In this document: positions 3,711 to 46,344 of the stretch, in pieces
Position numbering within the stretch: position 1 is the stretch's first letter
How the letters are laid out: every line of letters begins with the position of its first letter
Assembly: GCA_017983435.1 (NCBI GenBank)
Contig: JAGOBM010000006.1
Span: 11,921 to 75,920 of the forward strand
Direction of reading: 5' to 3'
Origin: Candidatus Moraniibacteriota bacterium
GTDB lineage: Bacteria; Patescibacteriota; Minisyncoccia; Moranbacterales; UBA1568
Length of the DNA: 64,000 nt
Position numbers and translations under genes: made by a program
Notes under the pieces: model-generated
Told to the model about the DNA's origin: nothing
What the model saw: only the letters and a program-made list of their open reading frames with translations
Database searches by the model: none

Positions 3711-5265
<1,555 letters not shown>

Positions 5266-5501
5266 AAACAGAGGAATGCCATCCCGAAGGATGCATTCCA
5301 AATGAAAACAATTGAAAGGAAATCCGCCATCTCCCTCTGTACAAGTACAGAAGAAAGAGGACTAACCACAAAAAATTGTGATTTGTTAAACTATATATTT
5401 GGCTCGAACAGATTGTTAAGGTGCCTTTTTTGCCATTCATCCCGAAAGGAAGAAAGCAAAGAGAAACAAAAGCAATCTAAATATTTCTAGACTGCCTACC
5501 T

Positions 5502-9073: not shown

Positions 9074-9225
9074 ATGGCTCCCTTGTTTCTTTTTCCCGGA
9101 AGAGTATAGTGGGGGCAGACGGTCATTCGGGTGAGCCGGTTTTGTTGTTTTGCAAAAAAAATCAACAGGCAGATCTCACCCACATTCAGTTCTTTCACAA
9201 CCGGCATCAAGACAAGGAGTCCATC

Positions 9226-10287
9226 ATGAACGCCCCTTCGCTCAAAAGAGCAGGGTCATCACTTCTGCTCGATACGATTTTTTCCCAAAGAGATACCGAC
9301 CTCGGACTCCTTGAGAAAAACGGACAGCTCAAGTCCGCTCTCTTTCAACTCAAACACCCGGGCATAAAACATATGATTCTTGGACGCCTTGCGCCCGAGA
9401 TCGAGCATGAATCGTTCGCTCCCATGCTCTGGCAAGAGCTGGCACTTCTGGCACATCAGGACAAGAAGACGTTCATGCATTCGCTCGGCGTCGCCTACAT
9501 CCTCCGCAAGATGCTTACTGAGGAAGGAGCGACCCGCCAGTACATCGAACGTTCGATGGAGCACCACGCGCTGACCCATGGCACATTCTTCGCTGCGGCG
9601 CTGCTGCACGATATCGGCAAGTACATCCTCAGGGAAATCATCCATGATGGACGGACAAAAAAAGAATGGGCGCGCCTCGTCAATCAGACACTCGGGACCG
9701 AGGTATTCGATCCGGCGTATCTCAAGAACCATGTTTCCGAGACCGCCTTCGACACCTACCTGCATGCCTGCGGGATCGACCCTATCGATTGCATTCCGCT
9801 CGAGGCTTCTTTCCCTTCGGACGTGCTTGCCCTCTTGGAAGCCCGGGGTATCTCCAAGGAGCTCACCTTCCGCAAGGCTATCGATCTGCACGAGGAAGGG
9901 ACGTATTGGCTCCTGCATCGCCATACCGGTATGGAAACGGTCGCTCTGATCGCCGCCTGGCATCACAGCTGCCATGAAATACCGATAAACGCGATACCGT
10001 ATCCGGTCGAGACATCCGCTCTCCGCATCGCGGTGACACAGTGCCTCCATCTTGCCGATACGCTCCAGGCGCTCATCTCCGGATTTCGTTCCTACAAAGG
10101 GACATTCCATCCGCTGATCGCGCTCGCCATCATCATCCGCGATACCAAATCACATCATCTGGATCGCGGCCTGACCAAGGCCTTTGTTCAGGACCAGCTC
10201 CAACAGCTCGCACGATCTGCCGCTTCGCCTGCCAATGACCCGGATCTACTCACGGCCAGCCATACCGTGTATCGATTCGTCGCCTAG
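9226..10287 (+). CDS. HD-GYP-like HD-domain phosphohydrolase paralog (degenerate GYP: PYP)
   Basis: Start set at ATG 9226 with AAGGAG SD 7 nt upstream. LLHDIGKYILRE, WHHSCHE...PYP, DTLQALISGFRSYKG. Shares C-terminal SYKG..HPLIALxI block with the upstream paralog. Confidence 0.65.
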   Translation: MNAPSLKRAGSSLLLDTIFSQRDTDLGLLEKNGQLKSALFQLKHPGIKHMILGRLAPEIEHESFAPMLWQELALLAHQDKKTFMHSLGVAYILRKMLTEEGATRQYIERSMEHHALTHGTFFAAALLHDIGKYILREIIHDGRTKKEWARLVNQTLGTEVFDPAYLKNHVSETAFDTYLHACGIDPIDCIPLEASFPSDVLALLEARGISKELTFRKAIDLHEEGTYWLLHRHTGMETVALIAAWHHSCHEIPINAIPYPVETSALRIAVTQCLHLADTLQALISGFRSYKGTFHPLIALAIIIRDTKSHHLDRGLTKAFVQDQLQQLARSAASPANDPDLLTASHTVYRFVA

Positions 10288-31440: not shown

Positions 31441-33825
31441 ATGAGGGAACGAAAAGGAGAAAAACCAAAGGCGTTTCAGGAGTACGACCGTGTCATTACG
31501 GAGATCCAAGCGACCCGAGGACGGAATGCCGAACACTTCATAAAGATTTTCCGGCACGAAAACGATAATGTCGCTGGCGCTTCGCTCGGCGTCCTGCTTG
31601 GTGTTTTTGAGATCGATGACCAGAGCGAGGATTCCAAGTATATCGTCAATTTCCTTTTCTCCGTCGCCAAGAACGAATACTTCTGCAATCCTCGGCGCGG
31701 CGCCATGGAAAGCTTCGAAGCGGCGCTCCATAAGATCAACGTCGCCCTCGCTGAGATCGTCAAACATGGCAATATCGACTGGCTCGGCAAGTTCCACGGC
31801 ACCATAGCGATCATCGAAAAAAACTCCATCCATCTCTCCGCTACCGGCGATGGCCGCATCTATCTCTTCCGCAACGGTACGCTCTCGCATATCAGCGAAG
31901 GACTCGCTTCTCCGGATGCCGCGGAGCATCCGATCAAGACCTTCATCGAGATCTCCAGCGGTCGGCTCGCACCCGATGATCGTCTCCTCTTTTTTCTGCC
32001 TCAGGTCTTCTCGCTGCTCGATGAAGAAACCATCGAACGCCAAGCACAGCGCATGGACAAAGACCGGTTCGCTCAATTCCTCCGCACCGCCATGATCAAC
32101 GAGCTTGATCGGAGCGGCGCCATCATCGTCGATATCACCGAGCCAAGCGAGTCCGCTCGCGCCAAAGCGGAGGCCCCCGAAAGACAGCGTCCGGAAATCA
32201 AAAGCTATTTTTCCGAGGCCGCCTTCGAAGCGAAGCATCAGGAAAGCATCGCCGCGGCCCTTTCTGAGGAATCTCCGCACCATGCCTCAGGAACATCCGA
32301 ATACACCGATACGAAAACCGGCCATATCTATGTCCAGGGAGACGAGAATAGCACGCCGATAGAGACGTCCCGTTTCGCGGAGTATCTCGAGGATTTCTTC
32401 CATTCGAGCCGAGTCATCCGCGAGCAAGGCACCCGGGCCATGCGCCGGTCTTTCCGCAACTTCTCCGATCGAAGCCGCCTCTTCTGCGTCGCATCTGCGG
32501 AGCGATGCCGCCAGATCAGTGTCGGATTTTTCAAAAAACATCTCCGCTCCAGACGACCAGGAGCGACTGAATCCATCGCCACCCTCGAACCAGTCGCTGT
32601 TCTTCAAAAGCAACCGGTGCCTCAGACACCACCACATCACCCTACCGATACGCCCCGTCTACCGCTCTCATCGGCAGCGATACCAGCCACACCGGGATCA
32701 CCCCGTATCAAGGCTTCTTTTTCACAGTTTTCCCAAACATCCGGGCGTATAGCCGCCAAGACCGCTCCACTGTTCCGTAGAGCGCTCGCCTCTCTCCAGA
32801 CGGTTGCTGGTATGATTGTTTCCTGGCTTCGCACTTGGATACCCCGGCTCTCGAGCCAGATTGTCCGCTCTATACGCCCTGCTCTCTCACATATCGTCCG
32901 CCTCTTCCAAAGACTTCCGTTCAAAGCCCGCATCGGAGTACTCCTGCTCTCTACCGCGAGCATCGCGACTTTCTTCTGGATTATGGCGCGCCCCGATACC
33001 TCCGAACCGGCACCGACTTCGGAACCAGAGACAAACCTTTCCGAGGTAGAACCAACCGCATCCATCCGATCAACCGAAACACTCGCGGCCGATCTCCCAG
33101 CTCTGCGCCTTCTCTCAGAACACGCCGATACCATAGCCATCGCCTCTCTCAACGACACCCTCGTCATCGCCACCCGGACGACGATCGAAATCCCCTCACT
33201 CGCCATTTCAGCAGTACTCCCGGCCGAAAGCGGAGCGGTCCGCGCTATCGCTCCGATGCCTGACCTCCGGACATTGTTTATCCTCACCGAAAGCGGAAAA
33301 CTACTCTCCTTCACCCCTTCCAATACGACATTCACAGAAAACACCCTCCCAACCGACACTCATTCTATTCAGGCCATCGGCGCCTATCTCACCTATCTCT
33401 ACGCGCTCGATGGAAACAGCGGCCAGATCTATCGCTTCCCGCGCGCTCAGGGCGGATTCAGTGAGGGTCTCGCCTGGCTCAAACCATCGATTGCTCCAGA
33501 CAGAGAGGCGACATTTGCGGTCAACGACATGGTCTCTCTCTTTGCCCATGGTTCACTCCGCCAGTTTTCACGCGGCAAAGAAGTCCGGACTTTTGAAATG
33601 CCCAACGTACCTCTACAAACCCTGCTCTTAGCCTCCGAACCAGACAACACCCGCATCGTCGGACTCGATAATCAGAACCATCGCCTCGTCATCTGGAATA
33701 CCGAAGGTGCTATCGAACAGCAGTACTTCTCCGACCGCCTTGCTGACATCCGCAGTCTCTCGCTCCACGGACCAGTAGTCAGCCTCTCCACTGATACCGC
33801 AGTATTCGAGCTTATTCTTCCTTAG
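31441..33825 (+). CDS. 794-aa single-pass membrane protein: N-terminal degenerate PP2C/SpoIIE-like domain, low-complexity linker, C-terminal extracytoplasmic domain
   Basis: ...GKFHGTIAIIEKNSIHLSATGDGRIYLFRNG resembles PP2C motifs; TM IGVLLLSTASIATFFWIM around aa 520; bidirectional terminator after stop. Confidence 0.55.
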   Translation: MRERKGEKPKAFQEYDRVITEIQATRGRNAEHFIKIFRHENDNVAGASLGVLLGVFEIDDQSEDSKYIVNFLFSVAKNEYFCNPRRGAMESFEAALHKINVALAEIVKHGNIDWLGKFHGTIAIIEKNSIHLSATGDGRIYLFRNGTLSHISEGLASPDAAEHPIKTFIEISSGRLAPDDRLLFFLPQVFSLLDEETIERQAQRMDKDRFAQFLRTAMINELDRSGAIIVDITEPSESARAKAEAPERQRPEIKSYFSEAAFEAKHQESIAAALSEESPHHASGTSEYTDTKTGHIYVQGDENSTPIETSRFAEYLEDFFHSSRVIREQGTRAMRRSFRNFSDRSRLFCVASAERCRQISVGFFKKHLRSRRPGATESIATLEPVAVLQKQPVPQTPPHHPTDTPRLPLSSAAIPATPGSPRIKASFSQFSQTSGRIAAKTAPLFRRALASLQTVAGMIVSWLRTWIPRLSSQIVRSIRPALSHIVRLFQRLPFKARIGVLLLSTASIATFFWIMARPDTSEPAPTSEPETNLSEVEPTASIRSTETLAADLPALRLLSEHADTIAIASLNDTLVIATRTTIEIPSLAISAVLPAESGAVRAIAPMPDLRTLFILTESGKLLSFTPSNTTFTENTLPTDTHSIQAIGAYLTYLYALDGNSGQIYRFPRAQGGFSEGLAWLKPSIAPDREATFAVNDMVSLFAHGSLRQFSRGKEVRTFEMPNVPLQTLLLASEPDNTRIVGLDNQNHRLVIWNTEGAIEQQYFSDRLADIRSLSLHGPVVSLSTDTAVFELILP

Positions 33826-33854: not shown

Positions 33855-33890
33855 AAAAACAGCGATCACCCGCTGTTTTCTCTTTTTATC
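33855..33890. terminator. bidirectional rho-independent terminator (aaaacagcg atcacc cgctgtttt)
   Basis: 9-bp hairpin with flanking A-run and T-run between convergent genes. Confidence 0.6.
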
Positions 33891-33901
33891 CCCTCACTCC
33901 T

Positions 33902-34664
33902 TTACTTGCAACAAACGATAGAAATCGTAGCATCAGAGGTATATTCATCATCATCGGTCAAGCAGGCCTGTATATTGGCAGGATCAAAACTTATATCCCA
34001 ATCAGACTGGCCTGAAGCACTATTGCCAACACTGCGCATATAACAACCTGTTTTTTGATACTCTCCAAGACACTCTATCCCCCAAAGACGTATAAAAGAT
34101 TCATCCCGTATACTACTTCCTGTTCCAATAGACGCAACTTCTGATGTATCGCCGGTGGTAGTGCTTCCGTCCTTATAATACACCCGGATAGAATCATTTT
34201 TATACCGTGTCGCCTGCACGCAAGAGAGCCCGCTTGCCGCCACCGCCGTCTCCACCACTCGTGTGGTCCCAAAAGCGGAGCCTTCTGATTTGATCCGTAC
34301 CACAGTGTCTCTCCAATCCGTAGCGGCACAGGTGACGAGCACTCCATCATTGTCATAGAACGAGACTTTGATATTGCCTCCGACAACATTGCTCTTGGAA
34401 ATGGTGTCCGGCACAGGAGGCTCCGCCTCCCATGGCGGTAGCCATGGCATTGAGATCGGTGTAGTTGTTCTTGTAGATCTTCTGGAGAGCGAGCTCGATA
34501 CCGGAGTCAGCCACTTGGAAGGATTGGACGGATTTGCCGGTAGAAGAGGCGGAACGCTGATTGGTGATAGAGACACTCGCTACCGTGATAGCGGCGGAGA
34601 GGATGATGCTCAAGATGATGAGAGAGAAGACGAGGACAGAGCCTTTTTTGGGGAGGAGAGGCAT
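33902..34664 (-). pseudogene. pilin/pseudopilin-like gene split by a frameshift near 34430-34450
   Basis: ORF 34353..34664 has a class-III-like signal-anchor (MPLLPKKGSVLVFSLIILSIILSAAITVA) but a junk C-terminus. ORF 33902..34576 has a junk Pro/Ser N-terminus, then a globular Cys-containing domain. The two frames overlap by ~220 nt. Confidence 0.45.
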
Positions 34665-35143
34665 AGAAGATTTGAGTTATTGTTTGGTTTCAGTTTACGC
34701 TGTTTTGAGTGAGGGAGCAAGATGCGAAAGTAGATTTTTTCTGTGATTAAGAATTTCTTCCTGCTGGTTTCCCAGACCAGAAAATGCAATCCAGAGAATG
34801 CAGACCCCCACCGACCCAGCCAGCAAATTTTTTCCTCACTATCGGTTTAAAGCACCTCGGGCTTCAGAAAAAATCTCTGGCTGGGTCGGCGAGGGGGTGG
34901 TATTACAACGTCACAGTGAAATCGATTCCTAGACCAGAACAAAAGCACAAAGAACCATCAGCCGATCTCACTTCAGGGCGCGGCTTGAAAGCATTTCAGC
35001 ATGGTTTCCGTCAGGATGACGGAATGAAATGCTTTCACGTCAGTCAAAAGCTCGCAGGGATTTTGACGGCGCCATGAGGTGAGTCGGTTGGTGGTTCTCC
35101 GATGGGAATGCGGTTTTTTTTATAATTGAAGGGAAATTTTATC

Positions 35144-37630
35144 TCATATTTTTTCAGCCAGTTTGACCCGATCCATGATTTCACGGTTGACGATAGTCGC
35201 GTCGCGACCGAACCGCAACCGGGACAGCTCTTTCAGGGCATTGGCGATTTCCTGACTGCCCCGCGTCGGCGGATAGGTCTTCATGTTGAATGGCTTGGTC
35301 AGTTCTCCATTCATCAACAGGCGAGCGAAACAATTGTAATTATCCACGTTCATCAGGTCGTTCGGACTGAAGACCGGTGAGAACTGCTTCTCGAGAAATT
35401 CTGCATCTTCCGGACCGACTCGAAACGCCACCATCGAACCGACATTGCCGAAGACCGCCTTGGATATCTCCTCCTTGAGCTGCGCGATGAATTGGTGCGC
35501 CAAGACCAGACAGAGGCGATACTTGCGCGCTTCCGAGAGAATCTGCGCGATCGAATTCGTCGTGACATTCTGAAACTCATCCAGATAGAGATAGAAATCC
35601 TGCCGCTCATCTTCCGGAGTATCGACGCGAGACAGCGCTGCCATGAGCAACCGACCGACGATAACCATACCGAGCAACTTGGCGTTGATCTCCCCGATCT
35701 TGCCTTTGGAAAGATTGACGAGGAAAATCTTCTTTCCATCCATGATATCTCGGAAATCGAGGGCGCTCTTCTGCTGCGCGATAATCGGACGCATGATGTC
35801 GTTCGAGATGAAGGTCGTCAGCTTGGACGTGATATAGGGGACCATATTGGCCAGCGCTGCCTCGCCACCAGCCTTCTCGGCTTCCTTGAGCCAGAAATCA
35901 CGGACAATCGGATTCGTGCAGTGTTCGAGCTTGTACCGGCGAAACTCCTCATCCGCCAGCACCTTGGATATCTCCATAAGCGTCGAACCGCTTTCCGGAT
36001 GTTCCATGATCAAGAGCATCGCATTGCGCATATACTGCTCGAACATCGGCCCTCCGGTCGATTTGAGATCATACAACTGATCGAAGATACCGATCATCTC
36101 ATTGATGATGAAAGTCTTCTGCTCGGGATGCGCCGGGTCGTATTCGAGCATATTGATACCGATCGGTCGGGCGATATCTGATGGATCAAACACAATGACA
36201 TCCTCCGCCCGCTCCTTCGGAATCGCCGTCAGGATATCCTCGATCGCATCACCATGCGGATCGATAAAGCAGAAACCCTTGCCAGCTGCCGCATCTTTCT
36301 TCGCCATTTCCTGGAGAAAATTCGATTTTCCAGCCCCAGTCTGACCGATCGCATAGAGATGACGACGACGATCATTGTCCGTGATGCGTATCTCTGATTT
36401 GGCTCCACGATAGTCATTAAATCCGAGCAAGAGTCCCTCGGTCGGGATATTGATCGGAGGAGCAGCCGCACCGGATTTGAGCCATTTGATCTTCGGTGTT
36501 TCCGTCGTAGAAATCGGGAAATGGAAGATGCTTGCGATTTCCTCGATACCGAGCACACAAGCATGCTCTTCGTCGAAGGTCCGGAAGATATATTCGAAGA
36601 CCGCCCGCTTTTCTTTCACCCGGCGTAGTACTTTGAATGTATTAACATCCGGATTTTCAAATTGTCCGAACGCGTTTTCCATCTGAGAGAGTATCTCTTC
36701 GGCCCGAGCGTGATCCGCTGCTGTCGCGATCAGGCGGATATTGACCCGGAACGCTGCCTTGCCTGATTTGGCCTCGATAGCTTTTACCAGATCTTGCTCT
36801 TCCGGAGTCAGCGAGATCGGCTTTGGCTCATTCGCTTCCGGATGCGTCTGGGATGACAAGACACTCACCATCCCCTTCCCGAGCTCTTTACCGGCATCCT
36901 GCAAGAGAGACGAGTCGCTATGCGCATCCTTGAGCCGCTGCCCACCCTGCATCCTCTGGGCGATCGACTTGCCTGCGGACCGCCAATCGCTCGGAGCGCC
37001 TGAGAGCACCACCTGGATCGCCGCGCCTTCGGCTTCCGTCTTGAGCCGGGAGAGCGCGTTGGAAATCTCATTGAGCGGATCAGCACCGATCGAACGATAG
37101 GTGCGGAGCGGGAGAGCGTAGTTGTTCCGGAGACCGATCGTCGCGACCGCCGTCGCACTGTCTGGGGAAAAGACGGTGTAGTCGGATACCTTTTCGATCA
37201 CCGCGTTCGGGAAAAAACTATGTATCTGCTTCTCGATGCTTTCGCGGAAACGCTTCGGGACGGAAATATAGAAAAATATCTCCTCGCTGTTCGAGGGATT
37301 GGCGATTTCAAACACGATATTGGGCGCCGTATAGAACCACTGCCTCCAAGAACCCGTCTTCCATTTGATCGTCGCGACTGATGAGAGCAGTTGTTCCATC
37401 GCTGCCACTTCGTCCCGCCAGGCTTCGGCATCATGATTCTGTGCTTCTCCGGATGAACGGTTCGGACGGGATACTTTGACGACCTCCAGATCAGCATTCA
37501 TCGACTGGCTGACAGCGATACGAAATCGGAGCACGCTCCTGACTATAAGGAAGACACCCGAAAAAAACGCCAACAGACCAAAAACACCCAAGAGCGGTGC
37601 CAGGACTATATTCCAATCGAAACCCGACAT
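35144..37630 (-). CDS. membrane-anchored FtsK/HerA-superfamily P-loop ATPase (VirB4/VirD4/DUF87-like secretion or DNA-translocation ATPase)
   Basis: N-terminal TM (IVLAPLLGVFGLLAFFSGVF). Walker A AIGQTGAGKS around aa 440, then FIDPHGD, Walker B FYLYLDEFQNV, and ARKYRLCLVLAHQF (HerA/VirB4-type C-terminal motif). Confidence 0.65.
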   Translation of the reverse strand: MSGFDWNIVLAPLLGVFGLLAFFSGVFLIVRSVLRFRIAVSQSMNADLEVVKVSRPNRSSGEAQNHDAEAWRDEVAAMEQLLSSVATIKWKTGSWRQWFYTAPNIVFEIANPSNSEEIFFYISVPKRFRESIEKQIHSFFPNAVIEKVSDYTVFSPDSATAVATIGLRNNYALPLRTYRSIGADPLNEISNALSRLKTEAEGAAIQVVLSGAPSDWRSAGKSIAQRMQGGQRLKDAHSDSSLLQDAGKELGKGMVSVLSSQTHPEANEPKPISLTPEEQDLVKAIEAKSGKAAFRVNIRLIATAADHARAEEILSQMENAFGQFENPDVNTFKVLRRVKEKRAVFEYIFRTFDEEHACVLGIEEIASIFHFPISTTETPKIKWLKSGAAAPPINIPTEGLLLGFNDYRGAKSEIRITDNDRRRHLYAIGQTGAGKSNFLQEMAKKDAAAGKGFCFIDPHGDAIEDILTAIPKERAEDVIVFDPSDIARPIGINMLEYDPAHPEQKTFIINEMIGIFDQLYDLKSTGGPMFEQYMRNAMLLIMEHPESGSTLMEISKVLADEEFRRYKLEHCTNPIVRDFWLKEAEKAGGEAALANMVPYITSKLTTFISNDIMRPIIAQQKSALDFRDIMDGKKIFLVNLSKGKIGEINAKLLGMVIVGRLLMAALSRVDTPEDERQDFYLYLDEFQNVTTNSIAQILSEARKYRLCLVLAHQFIAQLKEEISKAVFGNVGSMVAFRVGPEDAEFLEKQFSPVFSPNDLMNVDNYNCFARLLMNGELTKPFNMKTYPPTRGSQEIANALKELSRLRFGRDATIVNREIMDRVKLAEKI

Positions 37631-37663
37631 AATCTGTTTTTGTTTGTTTTTTACTCTGCCTCT

Positions 37664-38107
37664 CTACTCCCGATCGATCATACCTTTCTCGACCAGTCCT
37701 TGATAGAACTTGTCTACCAACTCATCATGCATGCGATCCAACAGGTAGTAATTCTTCATCTTGCGGGCCACATTCACTCCATGCAGGACACCCTTCTGCA
37801 TAACCAGGTCGAGGAGGCGCGTCACTTGACTTTCCGTATCGCCGAGGAGAGAAAGATTGCGTGCGTCATCATGCGCATCGTCCCGCATGACAGCGCCTGC
37901 CTGCCCTGACACCAGTGCTGTTTTCTGGAGAATCTCTGATAACTTTCCTGTTTCAACTTCTCCCTTCGATTCAACCACCTGCTCCGGCACCGGTTCCGCC
38001 GAACCCGCTTCCACCTGTGGCGCAGACGTCGAACCAGACTCCGCCGAAGCAGCTTCAAACACCGCCCCAAACGTATTGTCACTGGATTTCAGATCTTCTG
38101 CGGGCAT
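37664..38107 (-). CDS. hypothetical protein (acidic N-terminus)
   Basis: ATG start; ORFan inside the operon. Confidence 0.45.
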   Translation of the reverse strand: MPAEDLKSSDNTFGAVFEAASAESGSTSAPQVEAGSAEPVPEQVVESKGEVETGKLSEILQKTALVSGQAGAVMRDDAHDDARNLSLLGDTESQVTRLLDLVMQKGVLHGVNVARKMKNYYLLDRMHDELVDKFYQGLVEKGMIDRE

Positions 38108-38118
38108 ACGATTCCGTA

Positions 38119-38442
38119 TCAGCTCAATTTCACTGTCTCCTTGAACTCCTTGACGATACCAGCCACAAAATCATCGTACTCGGGGATGCGCGAACGGAAA
38201 AATTGCGCTATATCGTCATCCGAAGGCGATTTCTCGAGCAGCGCTTCATATTCCCCTATGCCTGACTCACCGATTTTCGCCATGGATTCGGCATAAATCA
38301 CCTTGATCAGCGAAGCAAACGCCATCTCGAGAGCCTCTTCCTGCTTCTCTTCCGAAAAAGCACTCAGGCCGAACTCCTGCACCAGCTGTTGTCGGATCTC
38401 TTCTCTGTCAATCATCGGCTCCGTCATACATATGCATGTCAA
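38119..38442 (-). CDS. hypothetical small acidic protein
   Basis: ORFan, tightly spaced with neighbours. Confidence 0.4.
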   Translation of the reverse strand: MTCICMTEPMIDREEIRQQLVQEFGLSAFSEEKQEEALEMAFASLIKVIYAESMAKIGESGIGEYEALLEKSPSDDDIAQFFRSRIPEYDDFVAGIVKEFKETVKLS

Positions 38443-38451
38443 AAAATTATA

Positions 38452-41043
38452 TTATCGACTGGTCGAAAAAATCCCATATATTGTCCCTTGAGTCGCTCTC
38501 GGGGCTGCCTGCTTCAGGTACTCCTCTACCGTGCCATTGACATTGCCTCGGAAGAATTCCGTCATCGAGACGACACCGGCCTTCTGTAGGCTCGCAGCGA
38601 ATTCATAAAAATTGCGATACTGCTCCGGAGCAAGGCTACTACGATACCCCATCACCTTTCCGGCAGCGAAAGCCTGCGTGTCCCGGATGACATCCGCGAC
38701 CTTCACCCGCATGATTTCGGACCGATTCAGCACCCAATCCTGACCAGGAGTCGGACTCTCAACCCGGAAAATCTGCGCATACCAATCATCCACACGAGGA
38801 GCATGTTCTGAAACCGCGACTTCCTCCGCTAGAGGAGTCACCTCTGGCCTGGTTTCGGCAATCACCGACTCCACTGCCGGCGTATCGATCGAGATCGGTG
38901 ATGTTGCCAATGTTGCATCCATCTTGGCCAGAGCCGCCTCTCGTACCGCATCGACATTCGATACCGGCGCGTGAGGTGCGACGGTCTCCACGAAGCGCCG
39001 CGCATCGGCCAGGTATCGATCCAGATCCTGTGTCCCGAAGAGACGGGTGAAGTCAATACGATCACCCGGACGCAACTGCGCGATATCACCACTCGAAATA
39101 CCGAGCGCCCGGACCTCAGCCGGAGACAATGAAGCTGCTTTGTCCTTGATCGCATCTATCAGGGCATGCGACTGTCCGACATTCAATCCTAGTCCGCCGG
39201 TCCGCTCCTGCACGAGATTCCAGAAGTTATCACCCGCCTTCACATTGGCAGTCTTGAGAAAATTCGAATATTCGGATGAGAAGCCTTCTATGGACGCATG
39301 CGGCACTTCCGTTATCCGCTCAGGAACTGCAGATACCGCTGGCTGTGTTTCTACTGGTGTTGCCACCGGATCGGCCACACTGGCTTCTGGCAAGAGCGTC
39401 TCATCAGTCGCATCAGGGAGAGCGGCCAGACCGAATGATCGATCAAGCCATCCGATACCGGTCCCATGATCCATCACGTGTTGCACACCCTCACCGATCC
39501 AGCCCTTCCCGACGACGAGGCCAAGCGCGGCGCCCGACGCACCGATCAGGAGTTTCCGACGCTTCATCGCATCCACTCGTTCACGGAAAAGTCCGGAAGC
39601 TTCTTTGCCTGTTTGGAGATGCTGTTCGACAAACAGTTTCACTGATGCTTCAAAATCCCGCGCTTTCTCAGCCCGAGTCTCATCATCCATATCCATCATC
39701 AGGTCGGCATTACCTGTCTGCGCTTCTATCTCCGCAATCTTATCAAAAATTTTCTGTCCCGCCTCCTCAGCCTGCGCTCGGGCCCGCGCATCAGCCCGTC
39801 CTTCGAGCGCCGTATCGAGCGTCACCGAAAGTGAGCCTCCTGCCAAGACCGCCCGAGCAAAAGCCGCCCCGAAAGCCGCCGCGCCTCCAGCCGCCGTCAC
39901 TCCCACGAGAGCGCCACCGATCGTCAATTTCTCATACCATTTGAGCCCATTATACGCATGCATCCACTGAGAAAGCTTCTCTCCGATACGCCCATGAAGC
40001 GAGCTCGATTTTCGTTTTATTTCTGCCTGCTTGCGTGCCTCGTATAATTGCACACGGCCTTCGAATTCACCGAAGTTCAGCACCTCCGCCATTTCCCGCT
40101 TGTATGCATCACTTCGATCACCGGCATATTTCCGTTCGATACGTGCTAGACGCTCCTGAGTGAATCGGAGACGAGCCTCCTCATAGCGCGTGCGGGCATC
40201 ATCCACGTCTTCCAGAGGCACTTCCTGCTTGAGTCCGAACAGATTCCGCAGACGCAGCAGTGTGCTTGATTTTTCAAGGTCAACCGAGACGTAGCGCTCT
40301 CGAGCGATAGCCAGATCATTCTTCAGTGTTTCCAGCAAAGCATCCGCCTGGACCGTCTCTTCCGGAATCACAGCGGCTTCTTTCGGTAGACGGCCGTATT
40401 TGCGCAACACTTCCGCTTCCGCGGCTGATCCCGGCGCTGCGAATGCAGCCTCTTGCTGTTGTTTCAAATCTGCATCCTCAGCATCCAGCTCGGCAGGCTC
40501 CGCCATACTCGCCTTGATAAGTTCCGAAGCCCGGGCCTCTTCCTCCGGAGAGAGCGGCGTCGGCAACGGCTGGATCGGCAAAGTCGGATCGATTTCCACC
40601 CCCGCGCCATCTGTGCGCTCTCGTACGCCGAATCCCTTCAGGACTTCCTTCGGAAATTCTCCAGCTATCTCTTGAGCTGAATACTCTTCGGCGGGTGCGG
40701 AAGGCAGAGGAGGATGTGTCGTATCTTCCTTGATCAGATGCTGCACGGTCTCCATATCAGGATTCGTCAACGCACGACCATCCGGCGTCACGATAAAATC
40801 CTCAACCCCATCCAGAACAGGGTCCAGCGGCTCTACTACCGGCTGTTCGGCACGTTTCGTATTGGTTCGCCGGCGTCGGCGCAAGACCTGAGGAGCCGGC
40901 TCAGTCATAGGCTCTGCTGCCAAAGACAAAGTCGGTTCGATCTTCTCAGTCGACTTATCTGGCAACTGCGACAAATCCTCAGCCAGCTTATCGCCCATGC
41001 TGCGGATCCGTGCCAATACTGCCTCCATCTTCTTGTCCTCCAT
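38452..41043 (-). CDS. 863-aa membrane protein: acidic/coiled-coil N-terminus, two glycine-zipper TM segments, C-terminal LysM-like motif (tentative)
   Basis: GGALVGVTAAGGAAAFGAAFARAVLAGG and LLIGASGAALGLVVG hydrophobic Gly-zippers; VKAGDNFWNLVQE...GDIAQLRPGDRIDF LysM-like. Confidence 0.55.
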   Translation of the reverse strand: MEDKKMEAVLARIRSMGDKLAEDLSQLPDKSTEKIEPTLSLAAEPMTEPAPQVLRRRRRTNTKRAEQPVVEPLDPVLDGVEDFIVTPDGRALTNPDMETVQHLIKEDTTHPPLPSAPAEEYSAQEIAGEFPKEVLKGFGVRERTDGAGVEIDPTLPIQPLPTPLSPEEEARASELIKASMAEPAELDAEDADLKQQQEAAFAAPGSAAEAEVLRKYGRLPKEAAVIPEETVQADALLETLKNDLAIARERYVSVDLEKSSTLLRLRNLFGLKQEVPLEDVDDARTRYEEARLRFTQERLARIERKYAGDRSDAYKREMAEVLNFGEFEGRVQLYEARKQAEIKRKSSSLHGRIGEKLSQWMHAYNGLKWYEKLTIGGALVGVTAAGGAAAFGAAFARAVLAGGSLSVTLDTALEGRADARARAQAEEAGQKIFDKIAEIEAQTGNADLMMDMDDETRAEKARDFEASVKLFVEQHLQTGKEASGLFRERVDAMKRRKLLIGASGAALGLVVGKGWIGEGVQHVMDHGTGIGWLDRSFGLAALPDATDETLLPEASVADPVATPVETQPAVSAVPERITEVPHASIEGFSSEYSNFLKTANVKAGDNFWNLVQERTGGLGLNVGQSHALIDAIKDKAASLSPAEVRALGISSGDIAQLRPGDRIDFTRLFGTQDLDRYLADARRFVETVAPHAPVSNVDAVREAALAKMDATLATSPISIDTPAVESVIAETRPEVTPLAEEVAVSEHAPRVDDWYAQIFRVESPTPGQDWVLNRSEIMRVKVADVIRDTQAFAAGKVMGYRSSLAPEQYRNFYEFAASLQKAGVVSMTEFFRGNVNGTVEEYLKQAAPRATQGTIYGIFSTSR

Positions 41044-41064
41044 ACATCGTCAGATTATATCATC

Positions 41065-42204
41065 TCATTGTAGAACATTTTTTGCAATCCGCTGCATCAC
41101 GATATCGATAGCTCGATCGCGATCAGCGGCCAGCGCGATATTGCCGACCCGTGACAACACCTGGTCAAGATAGGTCGAGACGCAAACGCGCTGCGATGCC
41201 TGATCAAACCCATCCCCCATCTCTTCCGAGAGCAGCTCTACGAGTTGCGCTGCCGAATCCGCCATGATATCGAGGAGCATATCGGCATCCTTGGCACATC
41301 CGGCCAAAAGCTGCTGCCACTCCTCCGACCTATCTATCGCTTCAACCGAAACTGAGACATTCTCTTCGAGGCCAGTCGCTTCTGTCACTGCTCGATCAGC
41401 GCTCTGGGAAAATCTCCCGACATTCTTCGGGTCATTCCGATCAAAAACCAGCGTGCCGACATAATTCGTATCATGCGTCAGCAGCACACACGACACCGTA
41501 TCTCCTTCCACCCGCTCGATACGGTACTGGCTCCCGCCCTGCTCGGCATCTGCGATCTCGACGCCCGCTTCCATCACGAAGCCGTGCTCCACCCGAGGTG
41601 ATTCAGGCTGCGAAGCCGCTGCCGGAACCTCATCATGTTTGCGCACATCCAAATCGTCCTGCAAAACCCGCAATCTCTCGATGACCTCTTGGTCGTGTTC
41701 ACCTTCATTACCCAAACGTATGATTTCATCCAACTCGGCCAGCCAGCTATCGAGCAGCCCGGACAATCGTTTCGCTTCCTTCTTAGAAATGCGGTTATTC
41801 ATGCGTCGCACATTGAGAGTGGTGCGATATCGCTCGATCTGACCATGAGCGGCATCGATCTCATTCTGCAGCCACCCCATCATCGCCTCCAGAGGATCCA
41901 CCGCCAAAGACTCGGGGTCAGAAGGAACTACTAGGGTCACCTCTCTTTCGTGGTAAGGATCAGCCGACACAATATCAACATCCTCATGCTTCGGACTGGA
42001 CGCCGCTTCATGTATCACCGGATGATCCGGCCGCTTTGACTGGCTCTTCTTCGCCGGTATCGAAGTATCGGCACGCTCCCAGCGTTCCTGATCACGGCGC
42101 AGCTGCGTCAAACCAGCCGCCGGAGCTGCTGTTTTTTTCGATTTCTTCGGTTTTGCAGCAACATGATCGACTTCCAATCCTGCAGCCTGCATATTCTCAG
42201 TCAT
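41065..42204 (-). CDS. hypothetical acidic coiled-coil protein
   Basis: ATG start 22 nt upstream of the next gene; no TM; no motif. Confidence 0.5.
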   Translation of the reverse strand: MTENMQAAGLEVDHVAAKPKKSKKTAAPAAGLTQLRRDQERWERADTSIPAKKSQSKRPDHPVIHEAASSPKHEDVDIVSADPYHEREVTLVVPSDPESLAVDPLEAMMGWLQNEIDAAHGQIERYRTTLNVRRMNNRISKKEAKRLSGLLDSWLAELDEIIRLGNEGEHDQEVIERLRVLQDDLDVRKHDEVPAAASQPESPRVEHGFVMEAGVEIADAEQGGSQYRIERVEGDTVSCVLLTHDTNYVGTLVFDRNDPKNVGRFSQSADRAVTEATGLEENVSVSVEAIDRSEEWQQLLAGCAKDADMLLDIMADSAAQLVELLSEEMGDGFDQASQRVCVSTYLDQVLSRVGNIALAADRDRAIDIVMQRIAKNVLQ

Positions 42205-42224
42205 ATTCCCTCCAGGAAAACCCC

Positions 42225-42629
42225 TTATGCTTCAGATTTACCACGTTTTTCGAGACTATATCCTCCCTCGGCAGCAAAACGCTCAAATTCTTCTACTGAT
42301 CCAAAAAACCACTCCCCGTCCGGCGCATTTTCTTTCCTCTTGAAAAAAGCGAGGATCCGATTCGGTGAAAGCGGTTTCGGATCGAGATTGGCATCCGTAC
42401 GGAAACGAATACGCACGCTCCCGATCGGCGTAATCTGATCAACGCGAAACGAATATTCTCCATTCGTCCAAACGTCCGCGATTTGCACTCTCTTTTGATC
42501 TGGTTCAGCGGCATCGGCGGGTACCGGCGACGGAACTGCCGCATCTTCTTTCGGCGCTTCCGGAATCGGTACTTCTACCGGGACAGCGGCTGCTATCTTT
42601 TCCTCTGACGGAACGCGTATCTCATCCAT
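42225..42629 (-). CDS. hypothetical protein (Pro/Ala-rich N-terminus), first gene of the minus-strand operon
   Basis: ATG start; divergent promoter region upstream. Confidence 0.45.
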   Translation of the reverse strand: MDEIRVPSEEKIAAAVPVEVPIPEAPKEDAAVPSPVPADAAEPDQKRVQIADVWTNGEYSFRVDQITPIGSVRIRFRTDANLDPKPLSPNRILAFFKRKENAPDGEWFFGSVEEFERFAAEGGYSLEKRGKSEA

Positions 42630-42738
42630 ACGGTATGGTAATACATCTGAAAAACAGAGATGCTGCCCGCCTGACGGAGAAGCATCATTTATTTTTTATC
42701 TCTATTTCAGTATAATGATAGCATAACAAAAGAGAAAA

Positions 42739-44412
42739 ATGAAAAACGCGAGATACCCTTCCCGTGATTCCACCGGCAGGATCATCTCCGACCATACTAT
42801 GCGTGCACCGAATCGTTCCCATGCCCTGCGATACGGCCTGCTCGCAGCACTGCTGGCTCTCGCGTTTTTCCTCCGTATCTATCACCTCGACTCGATTCCG
42901 GTCGGGCTCTATCCTGATGAGGCAGCCAATGGCGTCGATGCGCTCCATGCCCTCGAGACCCACCGATTCGATCTCTTCTATCCAGCCAATTTCGGCCGCG
43001 AAGGGTTGTTCATCAATCTTCAGGCGCTTTCCATCTGGATACTCGGCAACAACTTCATCGGACTCAAGATCTTCTCCGTCATTTTTGGCACACTGACCGC
43101 ACTCGGACTCTATCTTCTCGGTAAAGAGCTCTTCCACCGGACGACTGCCGGTCTCATCGCCGGCTTCATGGTCGCCACCTCGTACTGGGCGATCAATTTC
43201 TCTCGCATCGGATTCCGGGCGATCATGACTGCCTTCCTCCTCTCTTTCTCCTTCTACTTCTTTTTCAGGGGACTCCGCACTCAGCGCAAGCTCGATTTCC
43301 TCTGGTCAGGACTGATCTTCGGCCTCGGACTCCATACCTATATCGCCTTCCGCGTCGCGCCGCTCATCCTCATCATCCTGCTCCCAGCGCTGATACTCTC
43401 CTACGAGCGCTTTTTCCCACGCTTCTGGAAACACGGGCTCGCCTTCATTCTCGGCGCCATGATCACCGCAACACCGATGTTCTATCATTTCTTCATCTCG
43501 CATCCTGAGGATTTCGAATCCCGGTCGTCGCACATCTCCGTGCTTTCTCCGGAAGTCAATCACGGCGATCTCTGGGGAACCATGGCCAAGACGTTCTCCA
43601 TCTCGCTCATCAAATACAATTTCTTCGGAGATCAGAACTGGCGTCACAATTACCCTCCCTATCCGATACTCGATCCGGTCGTCGGCACCTTCTTCCTCTC
43701 CGGATTCTTCATACTGCTCTGGCAGACATTCCATCTCCTCTACCGCCGCCTGCGCTTCGCTGATCGGGATTTCCGTCTCATCGTCAATTTCTTCCTCTTC
43801 GGATCATTCTTCGCCATGCTGGCACCCGAATTCCTGACCAATGAAGGCCTCCCCCACGCGCTCCGCTCCATCGGCACCCAAGTCCCGGTCTTTCTCTTCG
43901 CGACGGTCCCCGTGCTCTGGCTGATCAAAAAAGCCTCTCACGTCGGCTACGGGCTCCGCATCGCTCTATTCTCCGCTCTCATCATCGCCTTTTCCGCCTC
44001 CGCTCTCTTCAATATCACCAAATACTTCGTCCTCTTCGCCGGAAGTCCGAAGGGAGGAGAGTCCTTCAATGAAGGCTATACTCATATGGCCGAGTATTTC
44101 CTCTCTCTGCCCGACGAGACCCACAAGTACTATCTGATCGATCGACAAGGCAATACCGACCGCTTCCATCTGCCCGTCGCCGGCATGCCGGTCTATTTCT
44201 TCACCTACGGAAAGGCGAAGAACTTCGAGATCGTCGGTCCCGAGACGATCCTCCGCCGGCCTGGAGTCTTCGTCATGACCCACTTCGACCAGGGTACGGC
44301 CGACAGGCTCAAACATTTCTATCCGGACGCCTACACCCAAGAGATCGATCTCAACGGACCGGATCGCACCGGCGGAGAATTCAATACTGTCATACTCCCC
44401 ATGAAACCATAA
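42739..44412 (+). CDS. GT-C fold glycosyltransferase, PMT/ArnT-like (GT39/GT83 family)
   Basis: First periplasmic loop GLYPDEAANG (DE motif); >10 TM helices; TATAAT at ~42706. Confidence 0.75.
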   Translation: MKNARYPSRDSTGRIISDHTMRAPNRSHALRYGLLAALLALAFFLRIYHLDSIPVGLYPDEAANGVDALHALETHRFDLFYPANFGREGLFINLQALSIWILGNNFIGLKIFSVIFGTLTALGLYLLGKELFHRTTAGLIAGFMVATSYWAINFSRIGFRAIMTAFLLSFSFYFFFRGLRTQRKLDFLWSGLIFGLGLHTYIAFRVAPLILIILLPALILSYERFFPRFWKHGLAFILGAMITATPMFYHFFISHPEDFESRSSHISVLSPEVNHGDLWGTMAKTFSISLIKYNFFGDQNWRHNYPPYPILDPVVGTFFLSGFFILLWQTFHLLYRRLRFADRDFRLIVNFFLFGSFFAMLAPEFLTNEGLPHALRSIGTQVPVFLFATVPVLWLIKKASHVGYGLRIALFSALIIAFSASALFNITKYFVLFAGSPKGGESFNEGYTHMAEYFLSLPDETHKYYLIDRQGNTDRFHLPVAGMPVYFFTYGKAKNFEIVGPETILRRPGVFVMTHFDQGTADRLKHFYPDAYTQEIDLNGPDRTGGEFNTVILPMKP

Positions 44413-44454
44413 TGATGATATCCGACATATCCATAATATAATCACGCGAATCCT

Positions 44455-46344
44455 ATGCATCTCATGAAACGGCACGCCACCTGGATACTCTTCGGACTCC
44501 TCGCCTTCTACGGCATCATCTCACTGCTCGTCTCCGCTCAGGAGTCGGCAACTTTCGACGAAAAGGCCCACATACCCTCCGCCTACAGCTATGTCCGCTA
44601 CGGCGATATGCGGCTCAATCCTGAGCATCCACCACTCCTCAAAGATCTGGCTGGTCTCCCACTCTTGTTTCTCGATGTGAAGTTCCCTCTGGATACGCCC
44701 GAGTGGCAGAACGGTATCAACGAGCAGTGGACGCTCGGGGACCTCTTCATGAACTGCACCCGACCTGATATCGCCTGCAATGACAGCGACGAGATCCTCT
44801 TCTGGTCCCGATTGCCGATCACGCTCGTCGCGCTCCTCCTCGGTCTCTTCCTCTTCTTCTGGGGACGCGAACTCGGCGGTGCTCTGGCCGGACTCATCGC
44901 CACGGCGCTGTTCGTCCTCGATCCCAATACCATCGCCCACGGACACTACGTCACGACCGATATCGGCATCGCGGCCTTTCTCTTCTTCGCTTTCTATTTC
45001 TTCGTGCATTTCCTCAAGCGACCAAGTTGGAAAAACGTCCTGCTAGCCGGATGTTTCCTCGGCCTGGCCGAACTGACCAAGTTTTCCGCCGTTCTGCTCT
45101 TTCCGATCTTTGGACTCTTCGCGCTCCTCTATGCCTTGACGAAACCCGCGGCCACACCACAGAGCGACGCTACACCGTCCCGCTTGCATTCGCGCCTCAG
45201 CATCCTGTTCGAATACCTCTCCAAATACGCCGTCATCGTCGTCGTCTGCTTCGCGCTGATCTCCATCGTGTACGCGCTCAATACCTGGAACATGCCGGCT
45301 GAAAAGACGATTGCCAATGCCGAGCTCGTCTTCTCCGGAGAACGGCCAGCCAAAGTCTTTGCCCGCGAAACACTGACGACTCTCGCTACCACTCCCGGAC
45401 TCGCTCCGATGGCGCACTATTTCCTCGGCGTCTTCATGGTTTTCTCACGCGTCGCCGGAGGCAATACCTTCTATTTCCTCGGCAACGTATCAGACACCGC
45501 TTCCCCGTATTACTTTCCGATCATATTCGCCCTCAAAGAATCGCTCCCACTGCTCTTCCTCCTCCTCGCCACCACCGGCTACACGCTGTTCAGGATCACC
45601 AAGGCGGTCTCCGGCAAGCAGGCGTCCGACTTCTTCCGAGTCTTCGCCGAGTCTTTCCAGGCACGCATCACCCAGTATCTCGCGCTTTTCTTCATCCTCT
45701 TCTACTCTTATGTCAGCATCACTGGTAATCTCAATATTGGCTTCCGTCATCTCTTCCCAATACTGCCATTTCTCTATCTCCTCATCGCGAAGACGCTCGC
45801 CGACTTCATCCGACGCCATATGGAACAATCCGGCTATCTGATCCGGCCGCTCTTCGCATTCCTCTTCGTCTCCATGCTACTCATCCCCCTCTCCGTGTAT
45901 CCGAGCTATCTCTCCTACTACAACGCCATCGCCGGAGGACACGAGAACGGCTACACCATCGCGACAGATTCCAACTACGACTGGGGACAGGATCTGAAGC
46001 ATCTCCGCGACTTCATCGATGAGCACAATCAGTGTCTCAAAGCCAACTACCTCGGCTGCGATGAACGCCTCGTCGAGCTGCCTCCGATCGATACGATCCG
46101 TCTTGATTATTTCGGCGGTTCGAATCCGGCGCTCTATCTCCCGGGCCGCTACACCGCCTGGCACTCCGACAACGAACCGGAATCCGGCTGGTACGCCGTG
46201 TCGGCTGTGTTCTTCCAGGAGAGCATCTACAAGCACAAAGCCCCCGGGAAACGAGGGTACGAGTGGCTCCGCGATCAGGGCGAGGATGCCCGGGCCGGCG
46301 ACTCTATCTTCATCTTCTACGTCAGTCCGGACGATCTCCGCTGA
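44455..46344 (+). CDS. GT-C fold glycosyltransferase, PMT/ArnT-like paralog
   Basis: ATFDEKAHIPSAY (DE motif), polytopic; tandem with the previous gene. Confidence 0.75.
   Translation: MHLMKRHATWILFGLLAFYGIISLLVSAQESATFDEKAHIPSAYSYVRYGDMRLNPEHPPLLKDLAGLPLLFLDVKFPLDTPEWQNGINEQWTLGDLFMNCTRPDIACNDSDEILFWSRLPITLVALLLGLFLFFWGRELGGALAGLIATALFVLDPNTIAHGHYVTTDIGIAAFLFFAFYFFVHFLKRPSWKNVLLAGCFLGLAELTKFSAVLLFPIFGLFALLYALTKPAATPQSDATPSRLHSRLSILFEYLSKYAVIVVVCFALISIVYALNTWNMPAEKTIANAELVFSGERPAKVFARETLTTLATTPGLAPMAHYFLGVFMVFSRVAGGNTFYFLGNVSDTASPYYFPIIFALKESLPLLFLLLATTGYTLFRITKAVSGKQASDFFRVFAESFQARITQYLALFFILFYSYVSITGNLNIGFRHLFPILPFLYLLIAKTLADFIRRHMEQSGYLIRPLFAFLFVSMLLIPLSVYPSYLSYYNAIAGGHENGYTIATDSNYDWGQDLKHLRDFIDEHNQCLKANYLGCDERLVELPPIDTIRLDYFGGSNPALYLPGRYTAWHSDNEPESGWYAVSAVFFQESIYKHKAPGKRGYEWLRDQGEDARAGDSIFIFYVSPDDLR

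Follow-up and report, generated by a model that had tools for sequence, protein, structure and literature searches.

What does a type IV coupling protein (T4CP) do when it stands apart from any secretion system? Patescibacteria, which depend on other cells, raise this question in a sharp form. Their type IV secretion system (T4SS) is essential in S. epibionticum, the single species tested, and no coupling protein can be recognised in its gene cluster (Wang et al. 2023, PMC10633639), yet the phylum holds thousands of unlinked T4CP-like genes: the part of a recent survey on which we draw counts 5,713 VirD4-like homologues in 2,918 Patescibacteria genomes, places 148 of them near virB4 and calls them 'possibly exapted' (Quiñonero-Coronel et al. 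2025, PMC12102498). Here we analyse what is very probably a member of the same gene population, coding for an ATPase of 828 amino acids (aa), and the minus-strand operon that ends with it, in a 64-kb stretch of DNA from a Moranbacteria-type Patescibacterium (the window; all coordinates are window positions). An earlier note on this DNA had read the locus as a seven-gene operon and a candidate for a minimal envelope-spanning machine, akin to a T4SS or a competence apparatus. We give slightly better than even chances to a different reading: that the operon core is a domesticated T4CP-family ATPase with a dedicated 147-aa partner, the ATPase acting as a ring motor at the membrane, the small protein as its adaptor or regulator, and the other genes supplying partners or cargo.

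The ATPase and its family

The proteins and domains on which the argument turns are the following.

35144–37630, minus strand: open reading frame (ORF) of the 828-aa ATPase
37523–37621, minus strand (residues 4–36): transmembrane helix, the only N-terminal hydrophobic stretch in a hydropathy scan
36431–37369, minus strand (residues ~88–400): DUF8128 N-domain, ~330 aa
36323–36346, 36248–36268 and 35570–35581, minus strand: Walker A, DPHGD and Walker B (DEFQ) of the T4CP-type P-loop domain
37664–38107, minus strand: ORF of the 147-aa partner of the ATPase

The motifs from which the earlier note had placed the protein in the FtsK/HerA superfamily, near VirD4 and TrwB, are all present, as is the N-terminal helix: AIGQTGAGKS lies at residues 427–436 (GQTGAGKS at 429–436), FIDPHGD at 455–461, DEFQ at 684–687 and ARKYRLCLVLAHQF at 701–714. 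That placement was right and can be sharpened, as profile and motif comparisons show the predicted protein to combine a DUF8128 N-domain with a P-loop domain of the VirD4/TrwB type. The Pfam models TrwB_AAD_bind (33.8 bits, cut-off 20.5) and TraG-D_C (29.8 bits, cut-off 22) match above their cut-offs, and T4SS-DNA_transf matches below its own (17.4 versus 20.1 bits). In a profile search of PDB sequences the best match is TrwB (1.6e-8), followed by DotL (1.1e-5), with the Walker A motif and the xDPxGD block in common; the Walker A/DPHGD region of the ATPase aligns to the Walker A/DPNGD block of TrwB. Foldseek with the C-terminal domain of the model of the protein (predicted local distance difference test score, pLDDT, 66) retrieves TrwB, DotL and Cagβ at E-values from 4e-6 to 1e-4 and target-normalised template modelling (TM) scores of ~0.45–0.50. 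Motifs (Walker A, xDPxGD, Walker B), Pfam models, C-terminal fold and N-terminal helix are thus all features that the ATPase has in common with T4CPs (VirD4, TrwB, TraD and TraG, DotL, Cagβ), but classical TrwB and VirD4 lack the ~330-aa N-domain. NCBIfam matches are limited to VirD4/TraD/TraG-type models and score far under the equivalog cut-offs; therefore the ATPase is no orthologue of a named T4CP. The N-domain assignment, PF26449 (DUF8128), is the precomputed annotation of an identical protein and of all close homologues.

The ~800-aa layout of an N-domain followed by a C-terminal P-loop domain is also that of VirB4 and TrwK. Unlike these, the ATPase gives no Pfam match to AAA_10 or CagE_TrbE_VirB at E ≤ 0.1, whereas a genuine plasmid VirB4-like protein used for comparison scores AAA_10 at 8e-116. 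A profile of the N-domain alone matched no solved structure among PDB sequences and did not match the VirB4-like protein gp155 of phage G. FtsK_SpoIIIE likewise has no Pfam match in the ATPase at E ≤ 0.1, and compared with FtsK and SpoIIIE the protein has a single N-terminal hydrophobic stretch and no multi-helix membrane domain.

Searches with tblastn found full-length relatives, DUF8128 included, on 252 plasmids from Streptomyces, Bacillus, haloarchaea and Sulfolobus. On the 27.5-kb B. subtilis plasmid NZ_CP154917 the homologue (WP_345805471) stands first in a conjugation operon, ahead of the genes for a Replic_Relax relaxase, TcpC and an AAA_10 VirB4-like ATPase, in that order. Because this homologue holds the coupling-protein position in a conjugation operon, the family supplies the T4CP in conjugation systems of the monoderm and archaeal type and is distinct from VirB4, of which the plasmids carry a separate AAA_10 copy alongside. 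The window ATPase is homologous over its full length to the monoderm and archaeal plasmid proteins annotated as 'TraM-recognition' or DUF87, which stand in the T4CP position next to a relaxase. Full-length relatives also occur in large Bacillus phages (phage G gp156, SP-10 gp203 and others), where PHROG 5156 matches at E = 3e-90 the N-domain aligns with an hhalign probability of 99.2%, and Foldseek gives an E-value of 2e-33. These phage proteins have the same architecture of DUF8128 and ATPase, but differ in their identity of only 21–23%, in their phage context and, in phage G, in the pairing of gp156 with a VirB4-like protein.

Several members of the family are peculiar in their own right. 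In phage G (locus L085, 89194–93336) the VirB4-like gp155, with P-loop_TraG and AAA_10 matches, lies directly upstream of the DUF8128-T4CP homologue gp156, so that two conjugation-type ATPases are paired in a jumbo phage; in Herelleviridae such as SP-10 the homologue is near replication genes. On the Halalkalicoccus plasmid NZ_CP144124 (L087) the relative is apparently split into a 447-aa protein that matches the N-domain and a 1023-aa TraG-D_C protein, which suggests that DUF8128 is a separable module. Some family members of 1,400–2,000 aa (protein P0177 and similar) carry ~900-aa C-terminal tails rich in proline, alanine, valine and glutamate; the tails are disordered, and we found in them no domains and no functional clue.

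The family is very large, with 5713 representatives at 50% identity that score E < 1e-30, and more than 120 clusters are 70–96% identical. In Patescibacteria it behaves as a chromosomal gene: when each species was represented by a single genome, at least 599 of them proved to be carriers. Of the 80 best loci, almost all bear Patescibacteria labels (Moran-, Uhr-, Falkow-, Komeili-, Nomura-, Wolfe- and Magasanikbacteria, Paceibacterota and others), and we take the few labelled, for example, Bdellovibrionales or Gammaproteobacteria to be mislabels. Identity is 66–96% within Moranbacteria and ~40–50% over the full length between classes. Phmmer searches with the plasmid VirB4-like ATPase, relaxase, TcpC and conjugal proteins within ±10 kb of the gene in these 80 loci returned only the ATPase itself. 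In contrast to plasmid T4CPs, the chromosomal copies are vertically conserved and unlinked to relaxase, VirB4 and mating-pair genes. In Paceibacteria the gene stands in the order secY-adk-map-[ATPase]-ndk with dnaX nearby, and the placement between map and ndk with dnaX close by is also found in ABY1-type loci. The Patescibacteria copies look vertically inherited and domesticated.

A dedicated partner of the ATPase

The gene directly upstream of the ATPase codes for a protein of 147 aa. When the ORFs of 84 fetched loci, our comparison set (individual loci are given L-numbers), were searched iteratively, homologues were found in 54. In 30 of them the partner is fused to the N-terminus of the ATPase, forming the first ~140 residues of a protein of 900–970 aa; another ~22 loci have it as a gene of its own beside that of the ATPase, and in 20 of 21 clustered neighbours it lies directly upstream. 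No other functional connection in the locus is as strong as this gene fusion. The fusion and the membrane helix are mutually exclusive: the N-terminal hydrophobic helix is absent from all 30 fused ATPases and present in 47 of 49 unfused ones, and the fused domain joins directly to the region that comes after the helix in the window ATPase. The 147-aa protein is a dedicated partner of the ATPase. The alignment divides it into a variable acidic N-terminus and an invariant helical C-terminal domain of ~65 aa (residues ~80–147, window 37667–37870). All 39 database homologues are called 'hypothetical' and have no Pfam domain, and the isolated domain has no Pfam match at E ≤ 10. Hidden Markov models of this protein and of the DUF5663 protein encoded upstream of it found nothing beside the plasmid and phage relatives of the ATPase. 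The partner, which is Patescibacteria-specific and able to replace the transmembrane helix by fusion, sets these ATPases apart from plasmid T4CPs.

A protein of similar design occurs in the ABY1-type loci (L018–L032, L059, L075 and L080), where a ~168-aa protein with an acidic tail and a conserved …IPGVNKFFLEQEAKIKTD… domain is encoded upstream of the ATPase. We considered it as a divergent form of the 147-aa protein, and hhalign rejected this; the two are unrelated. Downstream of the ATPase the same loci encode a ~240-aa β-rich protein (…VIEGVFDGQNMVGPDGK…), followed by dnaX. Neither protein has a Pfam match (for the 168-aa family, at E ≤ 10).

The operon and its borders

The remaining features of the locus are listed in the direction of transcription of the operon.

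42630–42738, no strand: divergent intergenic region, 109 nt, shared with the PMT_2 (GT-C) glycosyltransferase gene at 42739–44412 (plus strand)
42225–42629, minus strand: ORF of the 134-aa protein, first in the operon; acidic, proline-rich N-terminus and small C-terminal domain
41065–42204, minus strand: ORF of the 379-aa protein, second in the operon
38452–41043, minus strand: ORF of the 863-aa membrane protein
38119–38427, minus strand: ORF of the DUF5663 protein, 102 aa from ATG; the ORF reaches TTG at 38442 (107 aa)
34665–35143, minus strand: structured non-coding spacer of 479 nt between the operon and the pilin-like gene
33902–34664, minus strand: pilin/PilX-like gene with a 1-nt frameshift, a separate unit outside the conserved cluster
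33856–33879, no strand: hairpin with T-runs on both strands, between the convergent pilin-like and 794-aa genes

The unit consists of six genes, read from 42629 to 35144 on the minus strand, and not of seven. The tight spacing and structured gap described in the earlier note were borne out (9–33 nt between the six ORFs, followed by the 479-nt spacer), and the six-gene order recurs in close relatives. In two of these the identity is 96% and 89% for the ATPase, 89% and 73% for the DUF5663 protein, 77% and 48% for the 863-aa protein, 74% and 57% for the 147-aa protein, 72% and 61% for the 134-aa protein, and 53% and 34% for the 379-aa protein. The gradient extends across Moranbacteria, with 66–75% for the ATPase, 33–47% for the 147-aa protein, 35–42% for the DUF5663 protein and 21–32% for the 863-aa protein. 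Given the conserved synteny and this gradient of divergence, the genes are real and the observation is beyond chance. The order 863-aa protein, DUF5663 protein, 147-aa protein and ATPase is preserved across Moranbacteria, and in the more distant of them unrelated genes take the place of those for the 134-aa and 379-aa proteins. The comparison thus shows a conserved four-gene core preceded by hypervariable leading genes. Part of the cluster therefore co-occurs in related genomes, as the earlier note had proposed to check, and the neighbours of the ATPase differ between lineages.

The DUF5663 protein, the 863-aa protein and the two leading genes are lineage-specific. Two of the four proteins that had been taken for ORFans have relatives: the 147-aa protein, as described above, and the one called at 107 aa, which matches Pfam PF18908 (DUF5663) over residues 20–103 with 27.5 bits against a gathering threshold of 23.7. 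The latter probably starts at the ATG at 38427, which gives 102 aa as in its relatives. It is small, helical and restricted to Patescibacteria, and is encoded near the ATPase in 12 of the 84 loci, sometimes downstream of it and beside other large proteins. The 134-aa protein has no match in Pfam, NCBIfam, PADLOC or PHROG and has homologues in close relatives only. The 379-aa protein, found in 3 of the 84 loci, has no family match, is the fastest-evolving member of the operon and shows no similarity to the 561-aa protein at the same position in CP064975. A comparison of these two proteins with each other rejected the idea that they are paralogues.

The 863-aa protein has an acidic, coiled N-terminal half and a conserved juxtamembrane block (residues ~240–370). 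In the alignment these are joined by invariant Gly/Ala-rich hydrophobic segments at ~372–410 and 498–517 and by conserved C-terminal parts at ~590–680 and 746–863; a Kyte-Doolittle scan finds one hydrophobic stretch. Only nine database homologues exist and the family occurs in 10 of the 84 loci. Positional homologues of 855–1255 aa in other Moranbacteria share the layout at 21–32% identity. The LysM-like motif that had been noted in this protein found no support: the whole protein has no Pfam match, its isolated conserved segments have none even at E ≤ 10, and a Foldseek search with its poor model (pLDDT 47) came back empty.

The pilin-like gene had been counted as the seventh member and is excluded from the unit because it is frameshifted, its slot is variable and the spacer before it is structured. 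It appears as two ORFs that overlap in different frames, of 103 aa (34353–34664) and 224 aa (33902–34576). Aligned with the DNA of a relative (L088) that has an intact 212-aa homologue at the same position, the window copy has one extra base. Removing one base within ~34398–34439 restores an ORF of 253 aa, with 66% identity over 145 residues across the break; on this alignment the two ORFs are evidently one gene with a 1-nt insertion. The match to PilX_N (E = 3.9e-4, 20.8 bits) is under the cut-off of 25.5, and the leader KKG|SVLVF… has the glycine and lacks Glu5, so that the protein does not qualify as a type IV pilin or pseudopilin. Between the ATPase gene and the convergent gene of the 794-aa protein, four relatives (L005, L006, L009 and L010) have nothing in this slot and three (L004, L007 and L008) have unrelated genes; the pilin-like gene is absent from it in most relatives. 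We take that gene to be an insertion, frameshifted and unrelated to the operon, at a site whose content varies.

The spacer folds with a minimum free energy of -162.9 kcal/mol (z = -7.66 against shuffled controls). One hairpin has arms of ~28 bp at 34805–34832 and 34868–34895, and a second spans 34986–35037; both are inverted repeats. Against Rfam at E ≤ 1 the spacer gave chance miRNA and snoRNA matches far under threshold and no family, and the hairpin has no other copy in the window or the fetched loci. The corresponding spacer of L088 is 231 nt long, lacks ~250 nt of the window spacer and has a short hairpin with a T-run right after the ATPase gene. Relative to L088 those ~250 nt are an insertion. 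For the window spacer we consider three possibilities: a stable RNA, a terminator of complex structure, or a scar left by an insertion.

At the far end of the slot, the hairpin at 33856–33879 with T-runs on both strands resembles a terminator, in agreement with the bidirectional terminator that had been proposed there. The 794-aa protein encoded beyond it (31441–33825, plus strand), convergent to the cluster, has one hydrophobic segment and no family match. Its gene adjoins the ATPase gene in 10 of 84 sources searched, all Moranbacteria-type, at 29–49% identity where compared. At the other border the region that had been read as a divergent promoter is indeed a divergent intergenic region; a scan of it found no match to the sigma-70 consensus and no sigma-70-like site. 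It faces two tandem PMT_2 (GT-C) glycosyltransferase genes (42739–46344, plus strand). The divergent PMT arrangement recurs in Moranbacteria loci, and in five loci from outside Moranbacteria (L035, L037, L038, L058 and L061) a PMT_2 gene directly abuts the pair of 147-aa protein and ATPase, again divergently; this may point to a long-standing connection with glycosylation of the envelope.

What the motor may do

By analogy with its relatives, the ATPase may assemble into a ring that, powered by ATP hydrolysis, recruits a macromolecule (DNA or protein) and pushes it along. In this bacterium the N-terminal helix would anchor it to the membrane, on whose cytoplasmic side it would work. The 147-aa protein would be its adaptor or regulator, in a role comparable to that of CagZ on Cagβ or of the DotL adaptors. 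The DUF5663 protein, the Gly/Ala-rich 863-aa protein and the products of the two hypervariable leading genes may be lineage-specific partners on the membrane side, or cargo, and the docking site of the motor would be either the 863-aa protein or a Patescibacteria T4SS whose genes lie elsewhere. A bolder version, in which the DUF8128 ATPase and its partner are the motor of a Patescibacteria-wide translocation system independent of the VirB4-based T4SS, with fast-evolving membrane partners such as the 863-aa protein adapting to the host interface, seems to us rather unlikely; if true, a VirB4-independent motor might, for example, move nucleic acid or protein between epibiont and host.

Several results weigh against a T4CP-like motor at the membrane. 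The five other operon proteins have no match to T4SS components in Pfam, NCBIfam, PADLOC or PHROG, and no substrate, channel or DNA-processing partner was identified. With the full-length AlphaFold2 model of the ATPase (pLDDT 66), Foldseek ranks VirB4/TrwK and not the T4CPs first (TrwK chains, E = 7e-11, with a TM score of only 0.28), and the nature of the N-domain is therefore unsettled. Since the membrane helix is missing from the paceibacterial relatives, a location at the membrane does not hold for the family as a whole. The model of the 863-aa protein is poor, and its topology comes from hydropathy alone. That the protein is a hexamer and an active ATPase, and its partner an adaptor, is carried over from relatives. 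Finally, the T4CP homologue of S. epibionticum, which may or may not belong to this ATPase family, is non-essential for epibiotic growth according to the part of PMC12102498 that cites Wang et al. (2023).

The main rival holds that the ATPase was exapted for cytoplasmic nucleic-acid housekeeping, such as chromosome- or replication-linked DNA handling, and that its neighbours in Moranbacteria share no function with it. The FtsK/HerA superfamily includes DNA pumps, and the conservation of the ATPase, at 66–75% across a class-level group and ~45% across classes over 800 residues, is extreme for a 'secretion' protein. The position between map and ndk close to dnaX in Paceibacteria and ABY1-type loci points the same way, as do the fused ATPases that have dispensed with the helix and the presence of rmuC, holB and ftsQ near the ATPase gene in the window. 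Synteny with housekeeping genes is, however, weak evidence in small genomes; the helix has been kept in nearly all unfused ATPases, the tight spacing and conserved four-gene order in Moranbacteria argue for a shared operon, and FtsK is reportedly mentioned for the saccharibacterium TM7x, so that a segregation pump may not be missing. We regard this explanation as unlikely, though it deserves to be taken seriously. The earlier note had named a housekeeping clade with unrelated neighbours as the outcome that would speak against its own proposal, and half of this is what we see: the clade is vertical and housekeeping-like, but the 147-aa neighbour is fused to the ATPase in 30 genomes. That proposal, a minimal self-contained envelope-spanning apparatus in which the ATPase is the motor, the 863-aa protein the channel or cell-wall anchor and the pilin-like protein a surface filament, is in our estimate improbable. 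It draws on the transmembrane helix of the ATPase, on the conserved Gly/Ala-rich segments and long, possibly extracellular C-terminal part of the 863-aa protein, on the gene order kept across Moranbacteria, and on the large proteins and DUF5663 proteins encoded near the ATPase in a few other lineages (L012, L022 and L077). It loses its filament with the pilin-like gene, which is broken, lies behind the structured spacer and is missing in most relatives, and its anchor with the LysM-like motif, as no LysM or other wall-binding domain was found. The neighbours have no match to T4SS, type IV pilus or competence families, no polytopic channel-like protein is encoded in the cluster, the 863-aa family is confined to a small minority of the loci, and in Paceibacteria the ATPase works with no membrane helix, from a gene that comes right after the secY-adk-map block and before ndk.

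A remnant of an integrated conjugative element, plasmid or prophage would account for the occurrence of the family on plasmids and in Bacillus phages and for the full-length match to PHROG 5156, but the surroundings make it very improbable. The window belongs to the core chromosome of a Moranbacteria-type Patescibacterium: it contains the 16S rRNA gene, six tRNA genes, ribosomal-protein genes, rpoA, mreB, murD, glycolysis genes, holB and ftsQ, the NCBI assembly GCA_020050275.1 encodes an identical ATPase, and the closest named relatives are Moranbacteria. Every one of the ~58 window ORFs scanned either is a housekeeping gene or matches no family. Among them we found no integrase, relaxase, VirB4, VirB6, pilus-assembly, competence or phage gene, which extends the earlier note's observation that relaxase, integrase and VirB6 are missing. 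The GC content and composition of the region are unremarkable, many species share the synteny of the locus, and the protein follows the lineage. We hold a HerA-type anti-phage defence module to be just as improbable. PADLOC does give weak matches to mad8 (E = 1.2e-12) and to HerA models, but these cover the P-loop core only and the defence reading was rejected on that ground; moreover, no effector such as a nuclease or SIR2 is adjacent, and wide presence with high conservation is atypical of defence islands.

Set beside published work, the ATPase family and the orphan T4CP homologues of Patescibacteria are already known, the latter as VirD4-like, abundant and rarely near virB4 (PMC12102498, as far as its available text goes). 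The same text has no account of the DUF8128 N-domain, of the 147-aa protein as a fused or neighbouring partner, of the exclusivity of helix and fusion or of the Moranbacteria operon, and its supplements do not list the assembly of the window. Full-text literature searches on DUF8128, DUF5663, and DUF87 with CPR found no paper; in the literature searched there is no description of the architecture shared with plasmids and phages, of the fused partner, of the alternation between helix and fusion or of the operon. The locus thereby gives the orphan T4CP a concrete description, as a two-domain family with an obligate small partner identified through fusion, a switch between helix and fusion and a lineage-specific operon. 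It also turns 'possibly exapted' into an experimental question, namely whether the motor feeds the T4SS, serves a separate channel or takes part in a cytoplasmic process.

Two further observations concern the window away from the operon. The 16S rRNA gene is complete at 3711–5270 (minus strand) and 23S and 5S genes were not found anywhere in the 64 kb; the rRNA genes are therefore unlinked. Two HD-domain proteins of 397 and 392 aa are encoded side by side at 7818–9011 and 9109–10287 (plus strand) and are possibly tandem paralogues.

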